Part shown: positions 2,562 to 49,490 of the stretch, in pieces
Layout: each line of letters opens with the position of its first letter
Position numbering within the stretch: the stretch's first letter is position 1
Source: a virus
Lineage: Duplodnaviria > Caudoviricetes
IMG/VR virus record: IMGVR_UViG_3300023048_000002
Coordinates: 1 to 64,000 of that record
Strand: one strand, 5' to 3'
Length of the DNA: 64,000 nucleotides
The notes under the pieces: generated by a model
The model's database searches: none
The model's input: only the letters and a program-made list of their open reading frames with translations
What the model was told of the DNA's origin: nothing
Position numbers and translations under genes: made by a program

Positions 2562-2575
2562 AAAATTTCCATAGA

Positions 2576-2605
2576 AAAAGGCCAAGGGTTAAACCCTTGG
2601 CCTTT
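2576..2605. terminator. intrinsic terminator after the tRNA pair
   Basis: GGCCAAGGG-TTAAA-CCCTTGGCC hairpin with A/T tails; near-identical copy at 20930-20962. Confidence 0.8.
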
Positions 2606-2608
2606 ATT

Positions 2609-2738
2609 TGGTGCCCCACCCCGGACTTGAACCGGGACGCCCTCACGGGCGGCGGATTTTTTGAAGCGCTCTCGTGTGAAATAATCTCTAAAAGCGCTTG
2701 GAAGAATCCGCTGCGTCTACCAGTTCCGCCAGCAGGGC
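2609..2738 (-). tRNA. tRNA-Leu body with a 43-nt insertion in the anticodon loop (intron-like; anticodon CAA if removed after position 34)
   Basis: Acceptor GCCCTGC/GTGGGGC-A-CCA, Leu-type D arm GCGGAACTGGTAGACGC, anticodon stem GCGGA/TCCGC closing a 50-nt loop, long variable arm, T arm CCCGG-TTCAAGT-CCGGG. Confidence 0.8.
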
Positions 2739-2750
2739 ATTCATTTAAAT

Positions 2751-2836
2751 TGGTACCGACACCCGGACTTGAACCGGGACGCCATCACTGGCAGATCATT
2801 TTGAGTGATCCAAGTCTACCATTCCATCATGTCGGC
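2751..2836 (-). tRNA. tRNA-Leu(CAA)
   Basis: Cloverleaf, GATCA-CTCAAAA-TGATC anticodon arm, long variable arm, A73, encoded CCA. Confidence 0.92.
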
Positions 2837-2879
2837 ATAACGCTAAATTATTTATCCCTATAATTTAACGGTCTTTATA

Positions 2880-3060
2880 ATTCCTTCAATCAGCGGAAGG
2901 ACTAGCCGGGTCCGCAGTCTACATGAATTCGAATAGGGCGACAATCCCTTGATGCGGCATTTCTAGACCACCGCTATGAGTTGCCATCAGTACTCATAGT
3001 TTGCTGTCATTATTTCTTCAATCTATTGGGATATAATTGAATACTCATTCCAGCGGCAAT
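2880..3060. ncRNA. candidate structured non-coding RNA (multi-hairpin)
   Basis: No substantial ORF; several stems (TCCTTC/GAAGGA, AGGG/CCCT, GCGG/CCGC, CTATGAGT/ACTCATAG, TTCAAT/ATTGAA). Confidence 0.35.
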
Positions 3061-3063
3061 ACT

Positions 3064-4581: not shown

Positions 4582-4666
4582 TGGAGCCCTTGACAGGATT
4601 CGAACCTGCATATCCTAAGATGGGAGATTCGTAATCTCCTGAGCTATCCAACTGCTCAACAAGGGC
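4582..4666 (-). tRNA. tRNA-Arg(ACG) with an atypical 13-nt variable region
   Basis: GGAGA-TTACGAA-TCTCC arm, D loop with A20, T arm GCAGG-TTCGAAT-CCTGT, TCCA end. Confidence 0.88.
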
Positions 4667-4672
4667 ATTATA

Positions 4673-4750
4673 TGGTAGGCAACCCCGGACTTGAACCGGG
4701 AAGCTACTCGTTCTAAGCGAGCAAGGTATACCAATTCCCTTCAGTTGCCC
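4673..4750 (-). tRNA. tRNA with TAG (Leu) anticodon and short variable loop
   Basis: GCTCG-CTTAGAA-CGAGT arm, 5-nt variable loop, Leu-like D loop, ACCA end; 78 nt. Confidence 0.85.
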
Positions 4751-29485: not shown

Positions 29486-29513
29486 ATTATACATCTTAAC
29501 AGGTTAATGTCAA
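29486..29513 (-). promoter_or_regulatory. consensus sigma70 promoter for the tandem RNAs and ROT/TerD gene
   Basis: TTGACA-16 nt-TATAAT. Confidence 0.8.
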
Positions 29514-29521
29514 GCTTTGAA

Positions 29522-29900
29522 TTAGTGGGTGGTTGTTACACCACCCGTGCTATTGGGTAATACGGGAGCAACCCGCATATGGGCTTACGCTGCTAGAGCG
29601 TAATCACCATAGAATGCATTTGTGTTAGCATTTATAGTTTTTTAAGGTTTTACGAACCATTCTGAAACGAACTGTAAACTTGCCTATTCTAGTCCCGGTC
29701 GAAGCCAATACATCCCCATCAAATATACTCTCATTGACGAACCTAGTTGCAGGTTTCGATCCTGCTTTCGCCCATCGTGCTAGCAGTGCCACGACAACAC
29801 TGGTCATAAGAGTATATTTGGTGGAGATGGCGGGATTCGAACCCGCGTGTCGCGACCCTTTATTACTCGCTTTTCAGAGAGTTTCCTCTCAAACAGTCAT
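29522..29900 (-). ncRNA. ssrA: tmRNA, circularly permuted two-piece form (acceptor piece ~29900-29819; intervening segment 29818-29718; coding piece 29717-~29522)
   Basis: GCGGG-TTCGAAT-CCCGC-CATCTCC-ACCA lies upstream of GGGGATGTATTGGCTTCGAC; G3.U70 pair; tag ANTNAFYGDYALAA* at 29629-29585. Confidence 0.9.
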
Positions 29901-29921
29901 GTTCTTATTTATATCACATTA

Positions 29922-30200: not shown

Positions 30201-31103
30201 TCAATCTTTTACTTTTTTGTGAGGTATGAGCGCTTCAACGCAACGTAGCATACCACTGAACGGAACCTTGTCAGCCATAGCATTGTCTAGAGTCCTATTA
30301 GCAATGTTGTACTTGCGAGCAATCTTAATCTTTGAACTGAACTCTTCAATGATCTTGCCACGAGGACCGATGACACGATAAACCTTTACCATCTTTACTT
30401 CTTCTCTATTTTTAACAGAGAGCGTGTAATTGTTAATGGTTCTTCCAGCATCATAGATGTTATACATGACATTATTCTTGATGTTAAAGAACTTGCAAGC
30501 TTCGCTAATGTTCTTAAACTCAAGGGTCTGTTGTGTTGGATTGTATTCTCTTACCAAGACTCCTTTAGCACGGGAATACATAGGCTTTCTAATAGCATCG
30601 TTAATGGTTGTTTCGCCAATATTTAATGCCTTGCTTGCGGCAGCAATAGATGGATATATCTGATGGCCTTGTACACCTTTACCCATGGCCCAAATCATCT
30701 TACCGCCAGACTTAACAGCCTTGGATAGGATTGATTCTTCATGTTTCTTAGCTTCGATATGACGCCAATAGAAACCATAAGCTTTGAATCCACTGAGCAT
30801 ACACATGTGCATGTTACCAGTGATGCTAACTGCTCTCTTGTTGCCGGGATCATTATCCACCTTCAAGACATTCTTAACAACCCATTTAGCAGCTTCTAAA
30901 CGTGATCCGAAAGTCTGGATGGATTTGCCTGTTAATGGATGAATCTGTTCAAGAGCGATCTGCTTCCTGAACTCTCTACCATTGAAGCTATCGGCATTAT
31001 GTGTGAACACATCTAGACGTAAAGCATTTTTCTTAGCTTCACTATCAACCCACTTGGTATCTGTTGTGCGGCCTTCAACGAAGGCTTCTTTAATTATACT
31101 CAT
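30201..31103 (-). CDS. NUMOD1/HTH-repeat DNA-binding protein (homing-endonuclease-derived domains, no nuclease motif seen)
   Basis: Repeated F.S..EAA motifs; KAYGFYWR. Confidence 0.6.
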   Translation of the reverse strand: MSIIKEAFVEGRTTDTKWVDSEAKKNALRLDVFTHNADSFNGREFRKQIALEQIHPLTGKSIQTFGSRLEAAKWVVKNVLKVDNDPGNKRAVSITGNMHMCMLSGFKAYGFYWRHIEAKKHEESILSKAVKSGGKMIWAMGKGVQGHQIYPSIAAASKALNIGETTINDAIRKPMYSRAKGVLVREYNPTQQTLEFKNISEACKFFNIKNNVMYNIYDAGRTINNYTLSVKNREEVKMVKVYRVIGPRGKIIEEFSSKIKIARKYNIANRTLDNAMADKVPFSGMLRCVEALIPHKKVKD

Positions 31104-36405: not shown

Positions 36406-36903
36406 TTAGAAGTCTCTCAGTTCTTCCATGTATTCTTCCACGATTTCAATTTCTCCAATCTCATCGTCAATGTTTTTGATACTCTTAGGATCAAAGTCAC
36501 CACAATCATATGATAGAGATGTATGAATCTTATATTCAGGGAAGTCATAGGTTGCATCATATTCATCCATGATGTACTCATGACGCTTGACTAATTCATC
36601 ACAATCAAAACGAATGACTAAACAATTAGTTTCTTTGTCTTCATTTCTGGTCTTAAAAATTTCTAGCTTGGTTGGCTTACCGATCCATGGCTTTACTAGT
36701 TCACCATCAGGTTTAAAACCATCACAATGCTTTCTAGAATAGATCACAGTACAGTGGAACTCATCACTAGGAGTCGGGTTTGGGATATCATGTTTTTTGA
36801 TGAAATCCTCAAAACTCTTAATTGTCTCACCAGAGAATTTAACCGCAACGTAAGTTCCCGGCTGCTTCTCTTTCAATGCTTCATTCAAATCAACTAATTT
36901 CAT
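36406..36903 (-). CDS. acb1: anti-CBASS nuclease Acb1 / T4 gp57B-like 2H phosphodiesterase
   Basis: GTYVAVKFS, IPNP, FHCTVIYSR, ATYDF.EY.IHTSLSYD match gp57B; start at 36903 follows an AAGGA RBS. Confidence 0.85.
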   Translation of the reverse strand: MKLVDLNEALKEKQPGTYVAVKFSGETIKSFEDFIKKHDIPNPTPSDEFHCTVIYSRKHCDGFKPDGELVKPWIGKPTKLEIFKTRNEDKETNCLVIRFDCDELVKRHEYIMDEYDATYDFPEYKIHTSLSYDCGDFDPKSIKNIDDEIGEIEIVEEYMEELRDF

Positions 36904-36911
36904 ATAAATCC

Positions 36912-37415
36912 TTATATTTTTCGGGTCCATCTTTCAAAGCGTAGGTCTTCCGTTTCCTCAATAACCTCATCAAGCTTGAACGCATATTCCAACCATTCCT
37001 GATTAAAGAACGTATCACATTCATAATCTTTCTTGATTCTGGTTATATATCCATATTGTGCCCCAAATACTGGATGTTCTAGGGCATAATTATAAATTGA
37101 CGTACCGCCAATAAAGATAAATGGGTTAGACATTAGTGAAAAATTATCAATACGCGAATGTTTTGTAACCCATGTTGTCTCAGGAATGTCCCTTGATGTG
37201 ATTACATAGCACTTACGTTTGGGTAGAAGTTCTAATGTCTTCTCTGGATAGCCACGCATTTCAGCTATCTCTTTATAGGTATTGTAACCTAGGATGCAGT
37301 GACCATTGATAGTCACTTTTTTAAAGAAGGCAAAATCTTCTTTATAATGCCAAGGAATCTTATTATCCTTGGCGATACCCCATTTCTCATCGACTGCTAC
37401 GATAAAGAAATTCAT
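36912..37415 (-). CDS. frd: dihydrofolate reductase
   Basis: GIAKDNKIPW...EDFAFFK, LPKR, IGG, CDTFF. Confidence 0.92.
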   Translation of the reverse strand: MNFFIVAVDEKWGIAKDNKIPWHYKEDFAFFKKVTINGHCILGYNTYKEIAEMRGYPEKTLELLPKRKCYVITSRDIPETTWVTKHSRIDNFSLMSNPFIFIGGTSIYNYALEHPVFGAQYGYITRIKKDYECDTFFNQEWLEYAFKLDEVIEETEDLRFERWTRKI

Positions 37416-38644: not shown

Positions 38645-39061
38645 TTATTTCATGGCCTTGAAAAGATCAACCAAATCTGGCAATTTACCGTGATCAGTAA
38701 ACTTGACTACTCGCTCAGGCTTACCAAGAATACGTGTAACCACTTCCCTTAATTCTTCAAAGTCGGATGCACGCTCTAATGTAAGAACCGTATCCGCATA
38801 TATTTCTTCATCACATTCACTATATTCATTCCACCAGTTACCATACTTCGTAAACTTTAGGTTGAGTATAGCATCAAACTTATACAATGACTTGGGGTCG
38901 AGGTCTTTAAACTCTTCCCAAATATAATCAGACCAATACATATCCATCGACTCACATGTGCCTGCCGGATCACCAGAGTAGCTAATGACTGAAAATATAT
39001 TTTCAAATACCTCTCTGGTAGATGGTCTTAGATATGCAGAAGCATAAATTTTAATCACCAT
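38645..39061 (-). CDS. hypothetical protein
   Basis: ORF. Confidence 0.55.
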   Translation of the reverse strand: MVIKIYASAYLRPSTREVFENIFSVISYSGDPAGTCESMDMYWSDYIWEEFKDLDPKSLYKFDAILNLKFTKYGNWWNEYSECDEEIYADTVLTLERASDFEELREVVTRILGKPERVVKFTDHGKLPDLVDLFKAMK

Positions 39062-39554
39062 TACAAGTCTCCAACATTTTTTTAAACTTATCTATTTCTG
39101 CATGCTTAAAACGATTCGGACACAATAATAGCTTCTCTTTAGTATAGAAAATATAGTCTTCATCATCCACGGCAAACCATGCCACACCCGGATAATTTTC
39201 CGTCATATAATGACGACATTCATCTTCACGATTATATGTGAATGATGTATAAGTTACGCCATGGTGGGGTGTCTGACCTACGATCAAATCTCTGATGGAT
39301 TCTGGAAACTGTTCTACCAGCCATTCATGCTTATAGCTATAACGCCATGAGGTTGAGAATACAATCTTGATGTCATACTCATCAATAGAATTATTGATTG
39401 CTCTGGCAAAGTATGGAGTGAAGGAGAAATCTTTAAACTCTGCATCAGTCGTATCTTCATCACGAAAGAATGGATGCATACAACCATCGAAGTCAGTGAA
39501 AACAATTACCTGTTTCTTCATACCATTGGCAGCATTGTGTTCAAACGCTGCCAT
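39051..39554 (-). CDS. HAD phosphatase, Swiss-Army-knife RNA-repair type
   Basis: DFDGCMHP, IVFSTSWR, GQTP, RE.E, AVDD. Confidence 0.8.
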   Translation of the reverse strand: MAAFEHNAANGMKKQVIVFTDFDGCMHPFFRDEDTTDAEFKDFSFTPYFARAINNSIDEYDIKIVFSTSWRYSYKHEWLVEQFPESIRDLIVGQTPHHGVTYTSFTYNREDECRHYMTENYPGVAWFAVDDEDYIFYTKEKLLLCPNRFKHAEIDKFKKMLETCNGD

Positions 39555-40089
39555 TAGTGTAACCTCTATATGTTAAAGAAATTCTACGACCACACATAAA
39601 CCCGGCCTTGGGAATCCTATGCTGGTGTGTATCCTGAAATCCTGCTGACATGATGCAAAGGCTTCCGTTCTCAAGCTTTAACTTGGTTACATCATCGTTG
39701 CTACCATTTTCTCTAAACCAAATCTCACGTTCAACCCCAAGGCTGACAATGCAGATTGGCCTAGAGTCATCCATTTCTGGACTGTCATCGGCATGCCAAC
39801 CCAAGTGGTCGGACTGATCTTCATAGCGATTCAAGAAGCAGACTTCATACGTGGATTCAGTCTCAATCTGAAGCGCATATTCAATGAATGTGATCATTGA
39901 ATGTTTGGCTTGTGATGGATACTCTCTTTCATATGGTGGTGTGCCATAGGTGTAAGCAAAGCCAAACTGACTTACATAATATTCCATACGTGGAGTGTTC
40001 CCACGCTTAACCCAATCCAGTTCAGTGACTAGAATTTCCAGAACCTTATCTGGCTCTGGTATAAAATTTGGTATGTACTTAATATCCAT
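39541..40089 (-). CDS. AlkB-like 2OG-Fe(II) dioxygenase
   Basis: LNRY...WHADD, SLG, HRIPK, RISLTYR. Confidence 0.9.
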   Translation of the reverse strand: MDIKYIPNFIPEPDKVLEILVTELDWVKRGNTPRMEYYVSQFGFAYTYGTPPYEREYPSQAKHSMITFIEYALQIETESTYEVCFLNRYEDQSDHLGWHADDSPEMDDSRPICIVSLGVEREIWFRENGSNDDVTKLKLENGSLCIMSAGFQDTHQHRIPKAGFMCGRRISLTYRGYTNGSV

Positions 40090-40343
40090 TACTTAATTCC
40101 TAGTTGTTCCTTTGTCATAGTCATGAAATCAACCCATGATGTGACCTTTGCTTTCTCACCATAATCAACACGATCATCTAGTGGAATGGGTCGATGTTCT
40201 TTTAGAAATGCATTAAGGTCTTCACTATCAGTGAACCATAGGCGACACTTGATGCGCTCTCGCTTAACAACTTCATACACGTTGCCGTCAGCATCCTTCT
40301 GTTTAGAAAGATAGCCTCGGTCGAATTCAAGTAGTAGTTGCAT
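40089..40343 (-). CDS. hypothetical protein
   Basis: ORF. Confidence 0.55.
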   Translation of the reverse strand: MQLLLEFDRGYLSKQKDADGNVYEVVKRERIKCRLWFTDSEDLNAFLKEHRPIPLDDRVDYGEKAKVTSWVDFMTMTKEQLGIK

Positions 40344-40345
40344 AA

Positions 40346-40762
40346 TTAAAATTCTTTAATTTGAATTGAAAGACTTTTTAATACATTACTCATGCTAGTT
40401 GCAGTTGCTTCTAGCATTAAATCGAATGTAAATGGAGCATAGTAATCCATTTCAGGATCACCATTTTCAAGAAATGTCGTACACTTAAGGCCTGAAAAAT
40501 CAAGATTCTCAACTCGTGCAATGAAGATGACAATATCTTTCTTCTTTGTATAGTCAAATTTCCCAAGGAACTTAAGGTCTGATTCTTGAAAAACCAAACC
40601 AGATTCTTCCTGACATTCACGAAGGGCAGTCTGTACGAAAGTTTCACCTTCGTCCTGACGACCCTTGAAGATATCCCAATGTTTATTATTTGTGGCATGA
40701 CCTAGAGCATACTGATTGCTTTGAATCTTGACTAGGATACCAGCAGAAATTACCTTAGACAT
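40346..40762 (-). CDS. Nudix hydrolase (T4 NudE-like)
   Basis: ISAG, HWDIFKG...ALRECQEESG, PEMD. Confidence 0.88.
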   Translation of the reverse strand: MSKVISAGILVKIQSNQYALGHATNNKHWDIFKGRQDEGETFVQTALRECQEESGLVFQESDLKFLGKFDYTKKKDIVIFIARVENLDFSGLKCTTFLENGDPEMDYYAPFTFDLMLEATATSMSNVLKSLSIQIKEF

Positions 40763-40925
40763 TAGAACTCTCCATTACATGCGAATGTCGCTACTTTTTT
40801 GCACTTAGTGCATACCTTATAGAAAATGAGACAGGGCTTACCCGTTAACATTTCCTGTACTCTTTTACCTCTTGCATCGTACACCCAATAATGAAAACAA
40901 AAGATTGATTTAAGTTTAAATATCA

Positions 40926-41510
40926 TTAGACTAACTTCAGCAATTGTGTTAAAGACGATATAGAATCATATTGATTATCGCCAGTCCTGTCAAGTAAGGT
41001 GCTATTCCATCCGAAGTTACGTGGACTTTCCACATCAGCTTTGAAGGTATCACCTACCATGTGAATATCGGTCCCATACATCCACAATGCTTTCTCAACG
41101 GCCATGTAAATTTCAATGTCCGGCTTTGTATAGCCCTCTGCGAAGCTCCAAACGTAATGGTCGAATACATCCCCAAAGATGTGCACAATGGGCTGTGCAT
41201 AAGGATGTGCGAGGTTTGAACAAACGACAAGCTTCATTCCTCGCTTCTTAAGAACTTCTAACGTCTGCTTGACATCAGCAAATTCCTTGATTGACTTCAA
41301 CTCAATTGAAAGCTGATCCATGAGATGTGGAAGCTTCAAGCTTCCACCAGCAAATGCCACGGTCTCTTCAAAGGTTACTGGATGTGTCAACGGGTTCAAA
41401 TGTTTGAACCCGTTGATGTCCGTCAAGTTTTTCAACTGCTTGTAGGGATACGTCCTTTCATGAATTTTTACGATAGTCCCATAAGCATCAAATACAACTG
41501 CCTTGGTCAT
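40926..41510 (-). CDS. HAD-family hydrolase
   Basis: FDAYGT, CSN, KPD, VGD...D. Confidence 0.85.
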   Translation of the reverse strand: MTKAVVFDAYGTIVKIHERTYPYKQLKNLTDINGFKHLNPLTHPVTFEETVAFAGGSLKLPHLMDQLSIELKSIKEFADVKQTLEVLKKRGMKLVVCSNLAHPYAQPIVHIFGDVFDHYVWSFAEGYTKPDIEIYMAVEKALWMYGTDIHMVGDTFKADVESPRNFGWNSTLLDRTGDNQYDSISSLTQLLKLV

Positions 41511-42757
41511 TACCGTCTCCCCAGCAGTGCTTCTTCAAATGCCGAGATAAGATTAAAATGGATTCCATTCCAAAACTTACTCTGAGCAGCATCAACATTT
41601 TTAAACTTGATGTCTGCAATCATTTCTTTAATCTCTTGAGCATCAGGCTTCTTGCCTTCAGCCCATTCGAAGCGCTTCATTTCGCAAGACAAAAATTCCT
41701 TGGTGTCAAGGAATGCTTCCATCATATGAAGAATCTTCTCCAAGTTATCCTTGGTATTGACTTGCCATGCCAGCAGAATCGCGAACAGGTCTTCGAAGAA
41801 GTTAGGGTTCTTCTGGACCATGATTCGAATGTTCATCGCATCGAAAATATTAACAATTTTCTTGATGGAATCCTGCCAAATGTTATGCCCAAACGTGTCG
41901 CCGTACTCGCCAACGAAAGTAGCCAGTTCAATAACATCCACAGGCAACTTAGCTTCGCGCAAAGATTTAACAAAATTCTTCTTGTCTGCCATTCTATCCG
42001 GGGTTGCGTACCAATGGGTAGAGTAAAATGCAGCAGCACGAACCAGCACCTTTCGTTCATCTGAAAACGAATCCGTCAGTTCAACCACCGGTTCGAACAA
42101 ATCACTGTAGGCGTAAATCCCATGCTCCATGTTGGTAACGTATTTCAACGCACCACAATTAGCTAGCACTTTGAAGTATTTGGCCGGTTCCTCAGTTAGC
42201 AGACTTTTCTTGGTCTCAGCCCAAATGCGATCCTTGGAAACATGATTCAGCGCACCATCCAGCACCATTTTGTCCACCATGATCTTAGTCATGATGTCAA
42301 TCTTGAATTCAGGGAAGCGAGCATTGAAACGAGCCAGACGCAGGATACGCAGAGGGTCTTCAGCAAAAGCTTCAGACACATGACGCAGCACCTTGTTCTC
42401 GATGTCCTTCAGACCACCATAAGGGTCAACCATTTCACCTTCAAAATTATGCGGAACTGCGATAGCATTGATGGTCAGGTCACGACGACACAAGTCATCT
42501 TCAATAGAAACAGAAGAGTCAAACTTGGTTTCGAAATCCGTATGCTTCAAACCAGACTTGCGCTCGATACGAGCCAGAGCGTATTCATCATTGGTCTCTG
42601 GATGAAGGTATACTGGAAAGTCCTTACCAACCTGACTGAAGCCTTGAGCTTCCATTTCTTCTGGTGTAGAGCCGACGACAACGTAGTCATGGTCATGAGG
42701 AACCAGACCCATGAGAAAGTCGCGGACTGCGCCGCCAACTTGGTATACCTTCATCAT
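41510..42757 (-). CDS. cca: tRNA nucleotidyltransferase (CCA-adding enzyme)
   Basis: VGGAVRD, DHDYVV, VGKDFPV, EYALAR.ERK, RRDLTINA, EDPLRILR. Confidence 0.95.
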   Translation of the reverse strand: MMKVYQVGGAVRDFLMGLVPHDHDYVVVGSTPEEMEAQGFSQVGKDFPVYLHPETNDEYALARIERKSGLKHTDFETKFDSSVSIEDDLCRRDLTINAIAVPHNFEGEMVDPYGGLKDIENKVLRHVSEAFAEDPLRILRLARFNARFPEFKIDIMTKIMVDKMVLDGALNHVSKDRIWAETKKSLLTEEPAKYFKVLANCGALKYVTNMEHGIYAYSDLFEPVVELTDSFSDERKVLVRAAAFYSTHWYATPDRMADKKNFVKSLREAKLPVDVIELATFVGEYGDTFGHNIWQDSIKKIVNIFDAMNIRIMVQKNPNFFEDLFAILLAWQVNTKDNLEKILHMMEAFLDTKEFLSCEMKRFEWAEGKKPDAQEIKEMIADIKFKNVDAAQSKFWNGIHFNLISAFEEALLGRR

Positions 42758-49013: not shown

Positions 49014-49490
49014 CTAACCCTGTCGGACTCTGTTGAATCCTTCTGATGTATCGGGTATTTCATAGGTTTCAATCATATTTATTACAATGCCAATTGGGAT
49101 GTTCTTACCAGTTTGACGAGCGCGCTCCTTCAAACGGCTTAACAATTCTTCCTGATCAACCATAAAATACACACATTCAGTGTGATAATCCTTAGGAAAA
49201 CGAGACAGAATTTCCTTGCGTTTCTTAGCCGTAAGATTGGTTTGATCCCAAATCACATTCTTACGATTCTTAATAGCTTCATCCAACTGAACATACATAC
49301 GCTTAGTAGCTTCCTTAACCGAAGTCTTCCAGACTTCAGAGTAAGTCTTACCCTGTTCCTTGGCAATCGTTTCTACAATATCATCGGTCGAGATGATGAC
49401 ACTATCGTGAGCCATAGTACCAATGTAAGTAGACTTACCGGACGCAGGTGGACCTACCAAGACAATCAATGTTGGGGTGTTAATATTCAT
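49014..49490 (-). CDS. P-loop polynucleotide-kinase-like protein (AAA_33)
   Basis: VGPPASGKST, ISTDD, WDQTNL...R, EGF. Confidence 0.85.
   Translation of the reverse strand: MNINTPTLIVLVGPPASGKSTYIGTMAHDSVIISTDDIVETIAKEQGKTYSEVWKTSVKEATKRMYVQLDEAIKNRKNVIWDQTNLTAKKRKEILSRFPKDYHTECVYFMVDQEELLSRLKERARQTGKNIPIGIVINMIETYEIPDTSEGFNRVRQG

Follow-up and report, generated by a model that had tools for sequence, protein, structure and literature searches.

Introduction

In cyanobacterial tRNA-Leu(UAA), a group I intron sits between U34 and A35. To our knowledge, self-splicing group I introns account for all tRNA splicing in bacteria and their viruses, and the prevailing view restricts protein-dependent tRNA splicing to archaea and eukaryotes. 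We know of no splicing pathway of the bulge-helix-bulge (BHB) type in bacteria, and of no bacterial or phage endonuclease that removes a short hairpin insert of the kind described here. Phages T4 and T5 make stable tRNA-like RNAs.

The tRNA genes of Lak megaphages contain introns termed "enigmatic" (Devoto 2019, PMC6784885, accessible text). Archaeal and eukaryal tRNA introns, which are short and non-catalytic and pair with nucleotides of the loop, are cut by EndA or TSEN at a BHB and joined by RtcB or Trl1 (PMC4090602). In phage T4, polynucleotide kinase and RNA ligase repair breaks in the anticodon loop, and jumbo phages have RNA-repair gene sets, according to the available sections of PMC7824862 and PMC4810235.

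Here, we analyze a tRNA-Leu(CAA) gene with a 43-nt hairpin in its anticodon loop, between C34 and A35. The gene comes from a 171,340-nt virus record, of which positions 1 to 64,000 are called the window. CheckV puts the completeness of the record at ~49%, and its source run is labeled leaf litter metagenome. T4-type capsid, portal, and terminase genes are present in the record, and its NAD-dependent ligase shares 47-50% identity with the ligases of four jumbo phages, CM1 and RAS14 of Stenotrophomonas and Xoo-sp13 and XacN1 of Xanthomonas.

The insert most resembles the Lak introns. As far as the available text of PMC6784885 goes, both are short, interrupt the anticodon loop of tRNA genes that are otherwise normal in a phage of >200 kb, match no Rfam family, and have no known removal mechanism. 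The same text describes Lak inserts as conserved between related phages; here, one relative (X2) keeps the exact length and another (X3) covers the gene. The phage lineages differ, as the present record (171 kb, ~49% complete) belongs to a T4-like soil phage distantly related to XacN1. The Lak inserts, again in the accessible text of PMC6784885, include one that perhaps encodes a tRNA itself, and Lak gene variants occur with and without the insert, whereas the insert here is a plain 43-nt hairpin at position 34/35 of tRNA-Leu(CAA), and our searches found no insert-free orthologue of the interrupted gene. The locus is of a known kind, the short tRNA inserts of very large phages, in an unusually well-defined case and a different phage lineage. 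A literature search returned no explanation of short hairpin inserts in phage tRNAs, and Devoto 2019 was the sole paper found; the word "intron" is absent from the main text of Al-Shayeb 2020.

The other systems each share some features with this locus. The cyanobacterial group I intron occupies the same 34/35 position, also in a leucine tRNA. Group I introns, however, measure ~200 nt or more, have a catalytic core (P3-P8), and place a U ahead of the 5' splice site and a G at the end of the intron, whereas the present insert consists of 43 nt in one hairpin with no Rfam match at E<=10, follows C34, and ends in A. At 43 nt, the insert is far too small for self-splicing. Like archaeal and eukaryal introns, which serve as the model for the cut-and-rejoin proposed below, the insert is short and non-catalytic and pairs with loop nucleotides. 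BHB introns nonetheless lie at 37/38 and have their splice sites in two 3-nt bulges with a 4-bp helix between them, whereas the junctions here, at 34/35, lie opposite one another with a C.A mismatch and two A-U pairs between them, and neither EndA nor RtcB is found in the record. T4 enzymes rejoin a tRNA broken in its anticodon loop, and the window contains repair-type genes while relatives encode Rnl2-type ligases; T4 repair, however, reseals a nick and removes nothing, and no RNA ligase was found in the ~49% of the genome that the record covers. Finally, oversized phage tRNA-like genes, including a 133-nt gene of the same record and a Leu-bodied family, have the upper body of a tRNA and an enlarged lower arm and lie in tRNA arrays, as here. 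One excision restores a canonical arm in none of the 39 members of that family, unlike in the interrupted gene.

Results and Discussion

A Complete tRNA-Leu with an Interrupted Anticodon Loop

By direct reading, the minus strand from 2738 to 2609 is a complete class II tRNA with a long variable arm, except for its interrupted anticodon loop. The features of the locus, in window coordinates, are as follows.

2609..2738, minus strand: interrupted tRNA-Leu(CAA) gene, 130 nt including the encoded CCA (direct reading, ARAGORN with introns, cloverleaf MFE)
2704..2738, minus strand: 5' part, with the acceptor 5' strand, D arm, anticodon stem 5' strand, and loop nucleotides U32, U33, and C34 (reading, folding)
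2661..2703, minus strand: insert, UUCCAAGCGCUUUU...GAGAGCGCUUCAA, 43 nt, a 10-bp hairpin with a 16-nt loop and paired ends (folding, homologous arms)
2609..2660, minus strand: 3' part, with loop nucleotides A35-A38, anticodon stem 3' strand, long variable arm, U48, T arm, acceptor 3' strand, A73, and CCA (reading, folding)
2739..2750, minus strand: 12-nt spacer separating the two tRNA genes (direct reading, ARAGORN)
2751..2836, minus strand: intact tRNA-Leu(CAA), 86 nt (ARAGORN; Rfam tRNA, 44.2 bits at 2754-2836)
2572..2605, minus strand: intrinsic-terminator-like 13-bp hairpin and UUUUUCU (folding)

The acceptor stem has 7 bp (GCCCUGC/GUGGGGC, with two G.U pairs), followed by A73 and CCA. The D arm, GGCGGAACUGGUAGACGC, has the stem GCG/CGC and the loop GAACUGGUAGA and contains A14, A15, G18G19, and A20a. 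The variable arm, CGCCC-GUGA-GGGCG, is followed by U48, and the T arm reads CCCGG-UUCAAGU-CCGGG. Folding shows zero mismatches in the body stems. The anticodon stem, GCGGA/UCCGC, encloses 50 nt (7 + 43), in place of the 7-nt loop with a contiguous anticodon of a bacterial tRNA-Leu. The MFE of the whole gene is -58.0 kcal/mol (z -3.18), with 2 of 200 shuffles equally good.

The E. coli-type leucine identity set, as listed in the accessible part of PMC9976931, is present in full in the interrupted gene: A73, A15:U48, G18G19, A20a, the D/T corner, and C2-G71, the last described there as a block against SerRS. Direct reading also reveals A14, the long variable arm, the T loop, and the encoded CCA. 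According to the same part of PMC9976931, E. coli LeuRS requires A73 and the corner of the D and T loops, and neither the anticodon arm nor the variable arm.

ARAGORN at its default settings misses the interrupted gene and, with introns allowed, reports c[2609,2738] with a 43-nt intron; the label Phe AAA that it assigns is a boundary artefact. The Rfam tRNA model, RF00005, gave no match to the gene even at E<=10. An earlier sequence-only reading had described the same anatomy, coordinates, and 50-nt loop, and direct reading, folding, and ARAGORN with introns all agree with it. It had also placed an intact Leu(CAA) gene 12 nt away with an identical 22-nt stretch in the variable and T arms, and this gene (2836..2751) and stretch (GGCGTCCCGGTTCAAGTCCGGG) are both there. 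Because the similarity is limited to these 22 nt, the intact tRNA-Leu(CAA) is not a recent duplicate of the interrupted gene.

The terminator-like hairpin begins 3 nt after CCA and is stable (-24.1 kcal/mol, z -4.95, 0 of 200 shuffles). As the 13-bp hairpin and UUUUUCU come just after CCA and the spacer is 12 nt, the arrangement suggests that the interrupted and intact tRNAs form one two-tRNA transcription unit. A simple terminator scanner did not list this minus-strand hairpin. Its sole listing, a plus-strand site made of the variable-arm complement and a T run, is regarded as a by-product.

Boundaries and Fold of the Insert

A search of viral contigs for the same anticodon arm, GCAGCGGAUU..AAUCCGCCGCC, lacking an insert yielded 14 loci, and every one of these uninterrupted tRNAs has the loop UUCAAAA. 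From the 50-nt loop, 43 contiguous bases can be removed in 8 ways, and one of them, removal of 2703..2661 between C34 and A35, yields UUCAAAA. Because this removal alone restores the loop of all 14 arms, the gene can be taken to descend from tRNA-Leu(CAA); judged from these homologues, its ancestor is a tRNA-Leu(CAA) and not a CUA suppressor. The 34/35 insertion point and the Leu(CAA) identity proposed from the sequence alone thus hold.

Alone, the insert folds as AAGCGCUUUU/GAGAGCGCUU (-12.1 kcal/mol, z -3.79), and 0 of 200 shuffles fold as well. The fold of the whole RNA also pairs the terminal U and A bases of the insert and joins U32 and U33 to A37 and A38. The anticodon arm with its insert is predicted to be a single long, nearly continuous helix in which the two junctions lie opposite each other. 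This predicted coaxial extension of the anticodon stem comprises ~22 layers; its first 7 bp lead through a C.A mismatch, 2 more bp, and a 2x2 internal loop into the 10-bp hairpin. Among 300 shuffled inserts used as a control, 18 had at least as many intra-insert pairs, 8 were as stable, and 61 kept the cloverleaf; the corresponding counts for 300 random 43-mers of the genome are 30, 18, and 95. Relative to these controls, the hairpin is unusual, that is, uncommon though not extreme.

The MFE structure, with its 1x1 mismatch, 2 bp, and 2x2 loop, contains no BHB, in keeping with the earlier observation that a canonical one is lacking. Direct reading allows 2 pairs at most between the start of the insert (UUCC) and the exon AAAA.

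Proposed Removal of the Insert by Proteins

We tentatively favor an explanation in which the locus is a selectively maintained tRNA-Leu(CAA) gene with a 43-nt hairpin intervening sequence at C34/A35 that needs to be cut out and the halves rejoined by proteins. The gene would be cotranscribed with the intact tRNA-Leu(CAA) 12 nt upstream, and the transcript would be trimmed to a stable 130-nt tRNA-shaped RNA. Folding predicts that the split anticodon of this RNA is buried in the ~22-layer coaxial extension and that the 130-nt form cannot read codons. A protein endonuclease would then cleave the two strands at the foot of the hairpin, at the facing junctions, and an RNA ligase of the Rnl2 or RtcB type would seal the halves together, after healing by kinase and phosphatase where required. 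This would leave an 87-nt tRNA-Leu(CAA) that reads UUG codons.

We favor protein removal because the ancestral loop is restored exactly, the leucine identity set is complete, the junctions face each other, repair-type genes are present, and relatives encode ligases. Further points in its favor are the conservation of the gene in X2, the self-contained hairpin with paired ends, the restorable anticodon arm that 39 oversized Leu-bodied viral genes lack, and the use of UUG for 21% of the leucine codons in the phage record. Against it, we count the failure to find an RNA ligase or splicing endonuclease in the record (~49% of the genome), a BHB, ribozyme, or Rfam family in the insert, or an insert-free orthologue. 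The spliced copy would also look redundant because an intact tRNA-Leu(CAA) lies 12 nt away, and diverging duplicates account better than introns for the intact partners of both insert-bearing genes in the record.

To look for the enzymes, we scanned 74 ORFs of the window and 104 others with Pfam and added six-frame searches. A contiguous cluster of RNA-repair type occupies 39051-42757 on the minus strand of the window and consists of HAD_SAK_2, an AlkB-like 2OG oxygenase, Nudix, HAD, and a CCA-adding enzyme. A P-loop kinase also counts among the repair-type genes of the window. The individual genes considered are listed below.

36406-36930: 2H phosphodiesterase, Acb1-type (grouped by Pfam with anti-CBASS enzymes, not tRNA ligases)
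39051-39554, minus strand: HAD_SAK_2 (Pfam)
39541-40089, minus strand: AlkB-like oxygenase (Pfam)
41510-42757, minus strand: CCA-adding enzyme (Pfam)
49014-49490: P-loop kinase (Pfam)

The 2H phosphoesterase, kinase, HAD, and CCA enzymes that had been invoked for a protein-spliced mini-intron are therefore all present, but the 2H protein is an Acb1-type anti-CBASS enzyme by Pfam. We found no RtcB, Rnl1, Rnl2, or EndA in the 171-kb record (~49% of the genome), and PF01974, PF01139, and PF09511 are absent from this ~49% complete record. RNA_ligase (PF09414) appeared solely below the cut-off, inside LigA. A search for RNA ligase or endonuclease genes elsewhere in the genome, which had been proposed as a check, thus returned none in these 171 kb, which span about half of it.

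All three cultured relatives, XacN1, Xoo-sp13, and RAS14, have RNA_ligase PF09414 (Rnl2-type) above the cut-off, and in each of the three, one RNA_ligase gene is near the tRNA array. The available sections of PMC7824862 give XacN1 three Rnl2 paralogues, in agreement with the profile matches. Because the window tRNAs lie close to the end of the record (2.6-4.8 kb) and the ligase of the relatives is near the array, a ligase could sit just outside the record.

XacN1, Xoo-sp13, and RAS14 have both Rnl2-type ligases and oversized tRNA genes comparable to the one described here. It is conceivable, if rather doubtful, that the XacN1 group of large T4-like soil phages splices tRNAs with proteins, by means of an endonuclease acting at the stacked hairpin base and a phage Rnl2-type ligase, and that insert-bearing copies form a reserve resistant to anticodon-loop nucleases until matured. 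If so, this would be a third kind of tRNA splicing in bacterial viruses, neither group I nor BHB.

The present case defines the problem precisely: the ancestral loop is exact, the junctions are unambiguous, all leucine identity elements are present, and an intact isoacceptor adjoins the gene. If the RNA is spliced, a new RNA-processing pathway would be at work; if it is not, the gene would encode a natural RNA built on a tRNA scaffold.

Oversized tRNA-like Genes and a Possible Role for the Unspliced RNA

The record has a second insert-bearing tRNA-like gene outside the window, at 126636-126768 on the minus strand (L007:2636-2768). This 133-nt gene has a 56-nt insert of three hairpins ahead of an intact CUUAUAG loop (Ile UAU), and an intact 92-nt tRNA-Ile(UAU) at 126181-126272 is its partner. 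The tRNA arrays of XacN1, Xoo-sp13, and RAS14 each contain several oversized tRNA-like genes (L022:783-891 in XacN1, L023:1821-1916 in Xoo-sp13, and L025:11019-11152 in RAS14, as well as L022:7568-7715 and L023:6671-6821). Two oversized genes of the cultured relatives occupy the same slot, between tRNA-Ser(UGA) and tRNA-Lys(CUU), and a conserved gene of ~150 nt with a Leu-type D arm is common to XacN1 and Xoo-sp13. The 109-nt gene of XacN1 (positions 30282-30390 of its record) might be read as Trp(CCA) plus a 33-nt insert if an A.A mismatch in the stem is allowed, but we give this reading little weight because chance alone can produce such a restoration.

Searching viral contigs for Leu-type bodies in which the D stem and the T loop are 55-85 nt apart, we detected 61 loci (L041-L101) with 41 distinct cores. 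Two of these cores are ordinary tRNA-Leu genes followed by another tRNA, and the other 39 are oversized. In the oversized cores, the acceptor, D arm, and T arm are conserved, and a hypervariable middle of 55-85 nt stands in place of the anticodon and variable arms. Many have the acceptor AGTCAGG/CCTGACT; an encoded CCA is mostly absent, and a contig sometimes contains several such genes (examples are L048:1485-1587, L050:1490-1603, and L046:149-305, 426-547, and 1485-1604). Rfam tRNA matches some of them at 30-44 bits, and no other Rfam family does. Intron calls by ARAGORN on the 41 cores gave arbitrary anticodons and were set aside. The interrupted gene, with an arm that is canonical but for a single clean insert, stands apart from this family, in which a single excision restores the anticodon arm to a leucine loop in 0 of the 39 oversized genes.

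A close rival, though we hold it less likely than not, is that the interrupted gene encodes a non-decoding tRNA-shaped RNA that works unspliced, with its long arm presenting the hairpin as cargo or just serving to avoid the ribosome. Such an RNA might be a mimic, sponge, or decoy of a tRNA-binding host factor or a donor of leucine outside translation. Its tRNA body would provide processing by RNase P and at the CCA end, stability, and probably leucylation. Leucylation is probable because LeuRS does not read the anticodon arm; A73 and the D/T corner, the LeuRS elements, are all there, and the accessible part of PMC9976931 has the anticodon and variable arms as not needed. A role for the unspliced form is also in line with the frequency of oversized tRNA-like genes in phages (the second gene of the record, those of XacN1, Xoo-sp13, and RAS14, and the 61 viral loci), with the intact same-anticodon partners of both insert-bearing genes in the record, with the conservation of the interrupted gene in relatives, and with the lack of detectable splicing enzymes in the 171-kb record. 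However, seven ancestral loop nucleotides and a canonical anticodon stem would be kept needlessly, and these are absent from the 39 oversized Leu-bodied genes. A buried anticodon would make a poor decoy for an anticodon nuclease, we have no candidate target or partner protein, and the record contains no significant complement of the hairpin loop (the best is 12 nt at E 0.27).

Conservation in Relatives

Three sequencing runs cover the stretch, all as contigs and none of them an RNA run: X1, X2, and X3, of which X1 is flagged as a possible source. The X2 contig (3,525 nt) and the X3 contig (36,047 nt) represent relatives from two further sequencing runs and cover the interrupted gene. Since both cross the insert without a joint, the insert is not an assembly artefact; for X3, which spans the gene, this refers to the indels listed. 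The flanks in X2 differ from the record at 86 of 547 and 57 of 533 positions. In the ORF at 2024-2311, at least 29 of 78 third codon positions differ among the first 40 differences listed (~37%, assuming that the list is complete up to 2258). Across both tRNAs together (2603-2841, 239 nt), X2 has 12 substitutions and six 1-nt indels. All of the indels map to 2784-2810, where the intact tRNA has its anticodon stem and variable arm. The intact tRNA-Leu(CAA) of X2 accordingly has a changed anticodon stem sequence and a shortened variable arm, and because all six indels fall within it, the interrupted gene keeps its exact length.

These comparisons bear on the view that the locus is a pseudogene, a spare tRNA-Leu(CAA) inactivated by a palindromic DNA insertion and tolerated because the intact neighbor suffices. 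The intact copy with the same anticodon 12 nt away fits this view, as do the failure to find removal machinery in the 171-kb record, the lack of a match to the Rfam tRNA model, and the restriction of the insert to this lineage (0 matches in viral contigs and 2 chance matches in genomes). We nevertheless regard it as unlikely. X2, although ~37% diverged at neighboring third codon positions, keeps the exact length of the gene, with at most 12 substitutions over both tRNAs; over that interval, the intact tRNA acquired a different anticodon stem and a shorter variable arm; and the body stems contain no mismatch. Decay of the interrupted gene is therefore unlikely, because the gene is kept in the diverged X2. 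A recent exchange of the tRNA cassette could also lower the divergence in X2, and is conceivable because both flanks are rearranged in the relatives. Among the three explanations offered by the sequence-only reading, the pseudogene is thus disfavored by retention in diverged relatives, and the mini-intron and the precursor or decoy both remain.

The regions flanking the tRNA pair in the window, 2547-2602 and 2842-3063, vary among relatives. In X2 and X3, 558-619 nt replace the terminator stretch just 3' of CCA, and in X2 the 222-nt upstream spacer (2842-3063) is missing, with 4 nt instead. This spacer contains TATAAATA at ~3046-3053, which we take to resemble the T4 late-promoter motif.

Wider searches for the same insertion, which had been proposed as a check, gave a mixed outcome: X2 keeps its exact length and X3 covers the gene, but viral contigs gave 0 matches, both to four DNA patterns built on the interrupted gene or on its hairpin and to the same arm with a 15-45-nt insert after C34. 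The latter pattern gave 2 chance matches, outside tRNAs, in the genomes of 185,579 species. A tandem T-arm pattern gave 9 loci in metagenome contigs, none related; the flanking ORFs gave no distinct locus in viral contigs; and blastn against cultured phages matched the tRNA body alone, in 6 records.

Possible Origin of the Insert and the Improbable Amber Suppressor

A miniature mobile DNA hairpin (REP-, MITE-, or IS200-derived) is an improbable source of the insert and would in any case concern its origin only, being compatible with any fate. An imperfect inverted repeat, UUCCAAGCGCU and the complement of AGCGCUUCAA, forms the ends of the insert, in keeping with such an element. The insert is nevertheless single-copy, matching itself alone in the 64-kb window and the 171-kb record, and a search of viral contigs for both hairpin stems together gave 0 matches. 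Moreover, no target-site duplication is visible around it, and the Pfam scans revealed no transposase of these kinds.

Excision one nucleotide later, giving the anticodon CUA and a leucine-inserting amber suppressor, is very improbable: the loop UUCUAAA would be well formed, TAG ends 4 of 169 ORFs, all three cultured relatives have tRNA(CUA) genes, and LeuRS ignores the anticodon in the accessible part of PMC9976931, but CAA occurs in 14 of 14 homologous arms, the genes of the record are open under the standard code, and the CUA tRNAs of the relatives are ordinary 76-nt genes not of the Leu type. The CUA alternative raised in the sequence-only reading accordingly loses support, since all 14 arms have UUCAAAA, which excision after C34 alone restores.

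Stop codons of the 169 ORFs in the record are TAG in 4, TAA in 126, and TGA in 39, and the genes read open under the standard code. Suppressor tRNAs are, as this and the tRNA(CUA) genes of all three cultured relatives suggest, usual in this phage group (L022:6548-6706, L023:4792-4867, L026:1329-1404, and L025:17429-17503), and RAS14 encodes a tRNA(UUA) as well. We saw no suppressor tRNA in the record, which covers about half of the genome.

The window also encodes a tmRNA, at 29494-29911 on the minus strand, with the tag peptide ANTNAFYGDYALAA (ARAGORN). Atypical tRNA sizes occur at 4582-4666 and 4673-4750 (minus strand) of the window and at 114281-114462 and 127095-127179 of the record. With their long extra arms, the Arg(ACG), Lys(CUU), and two Thr(UGU) genes measure 83-90 nt, and a 78-nt "Leu(UAG)" gene is without the long arm.
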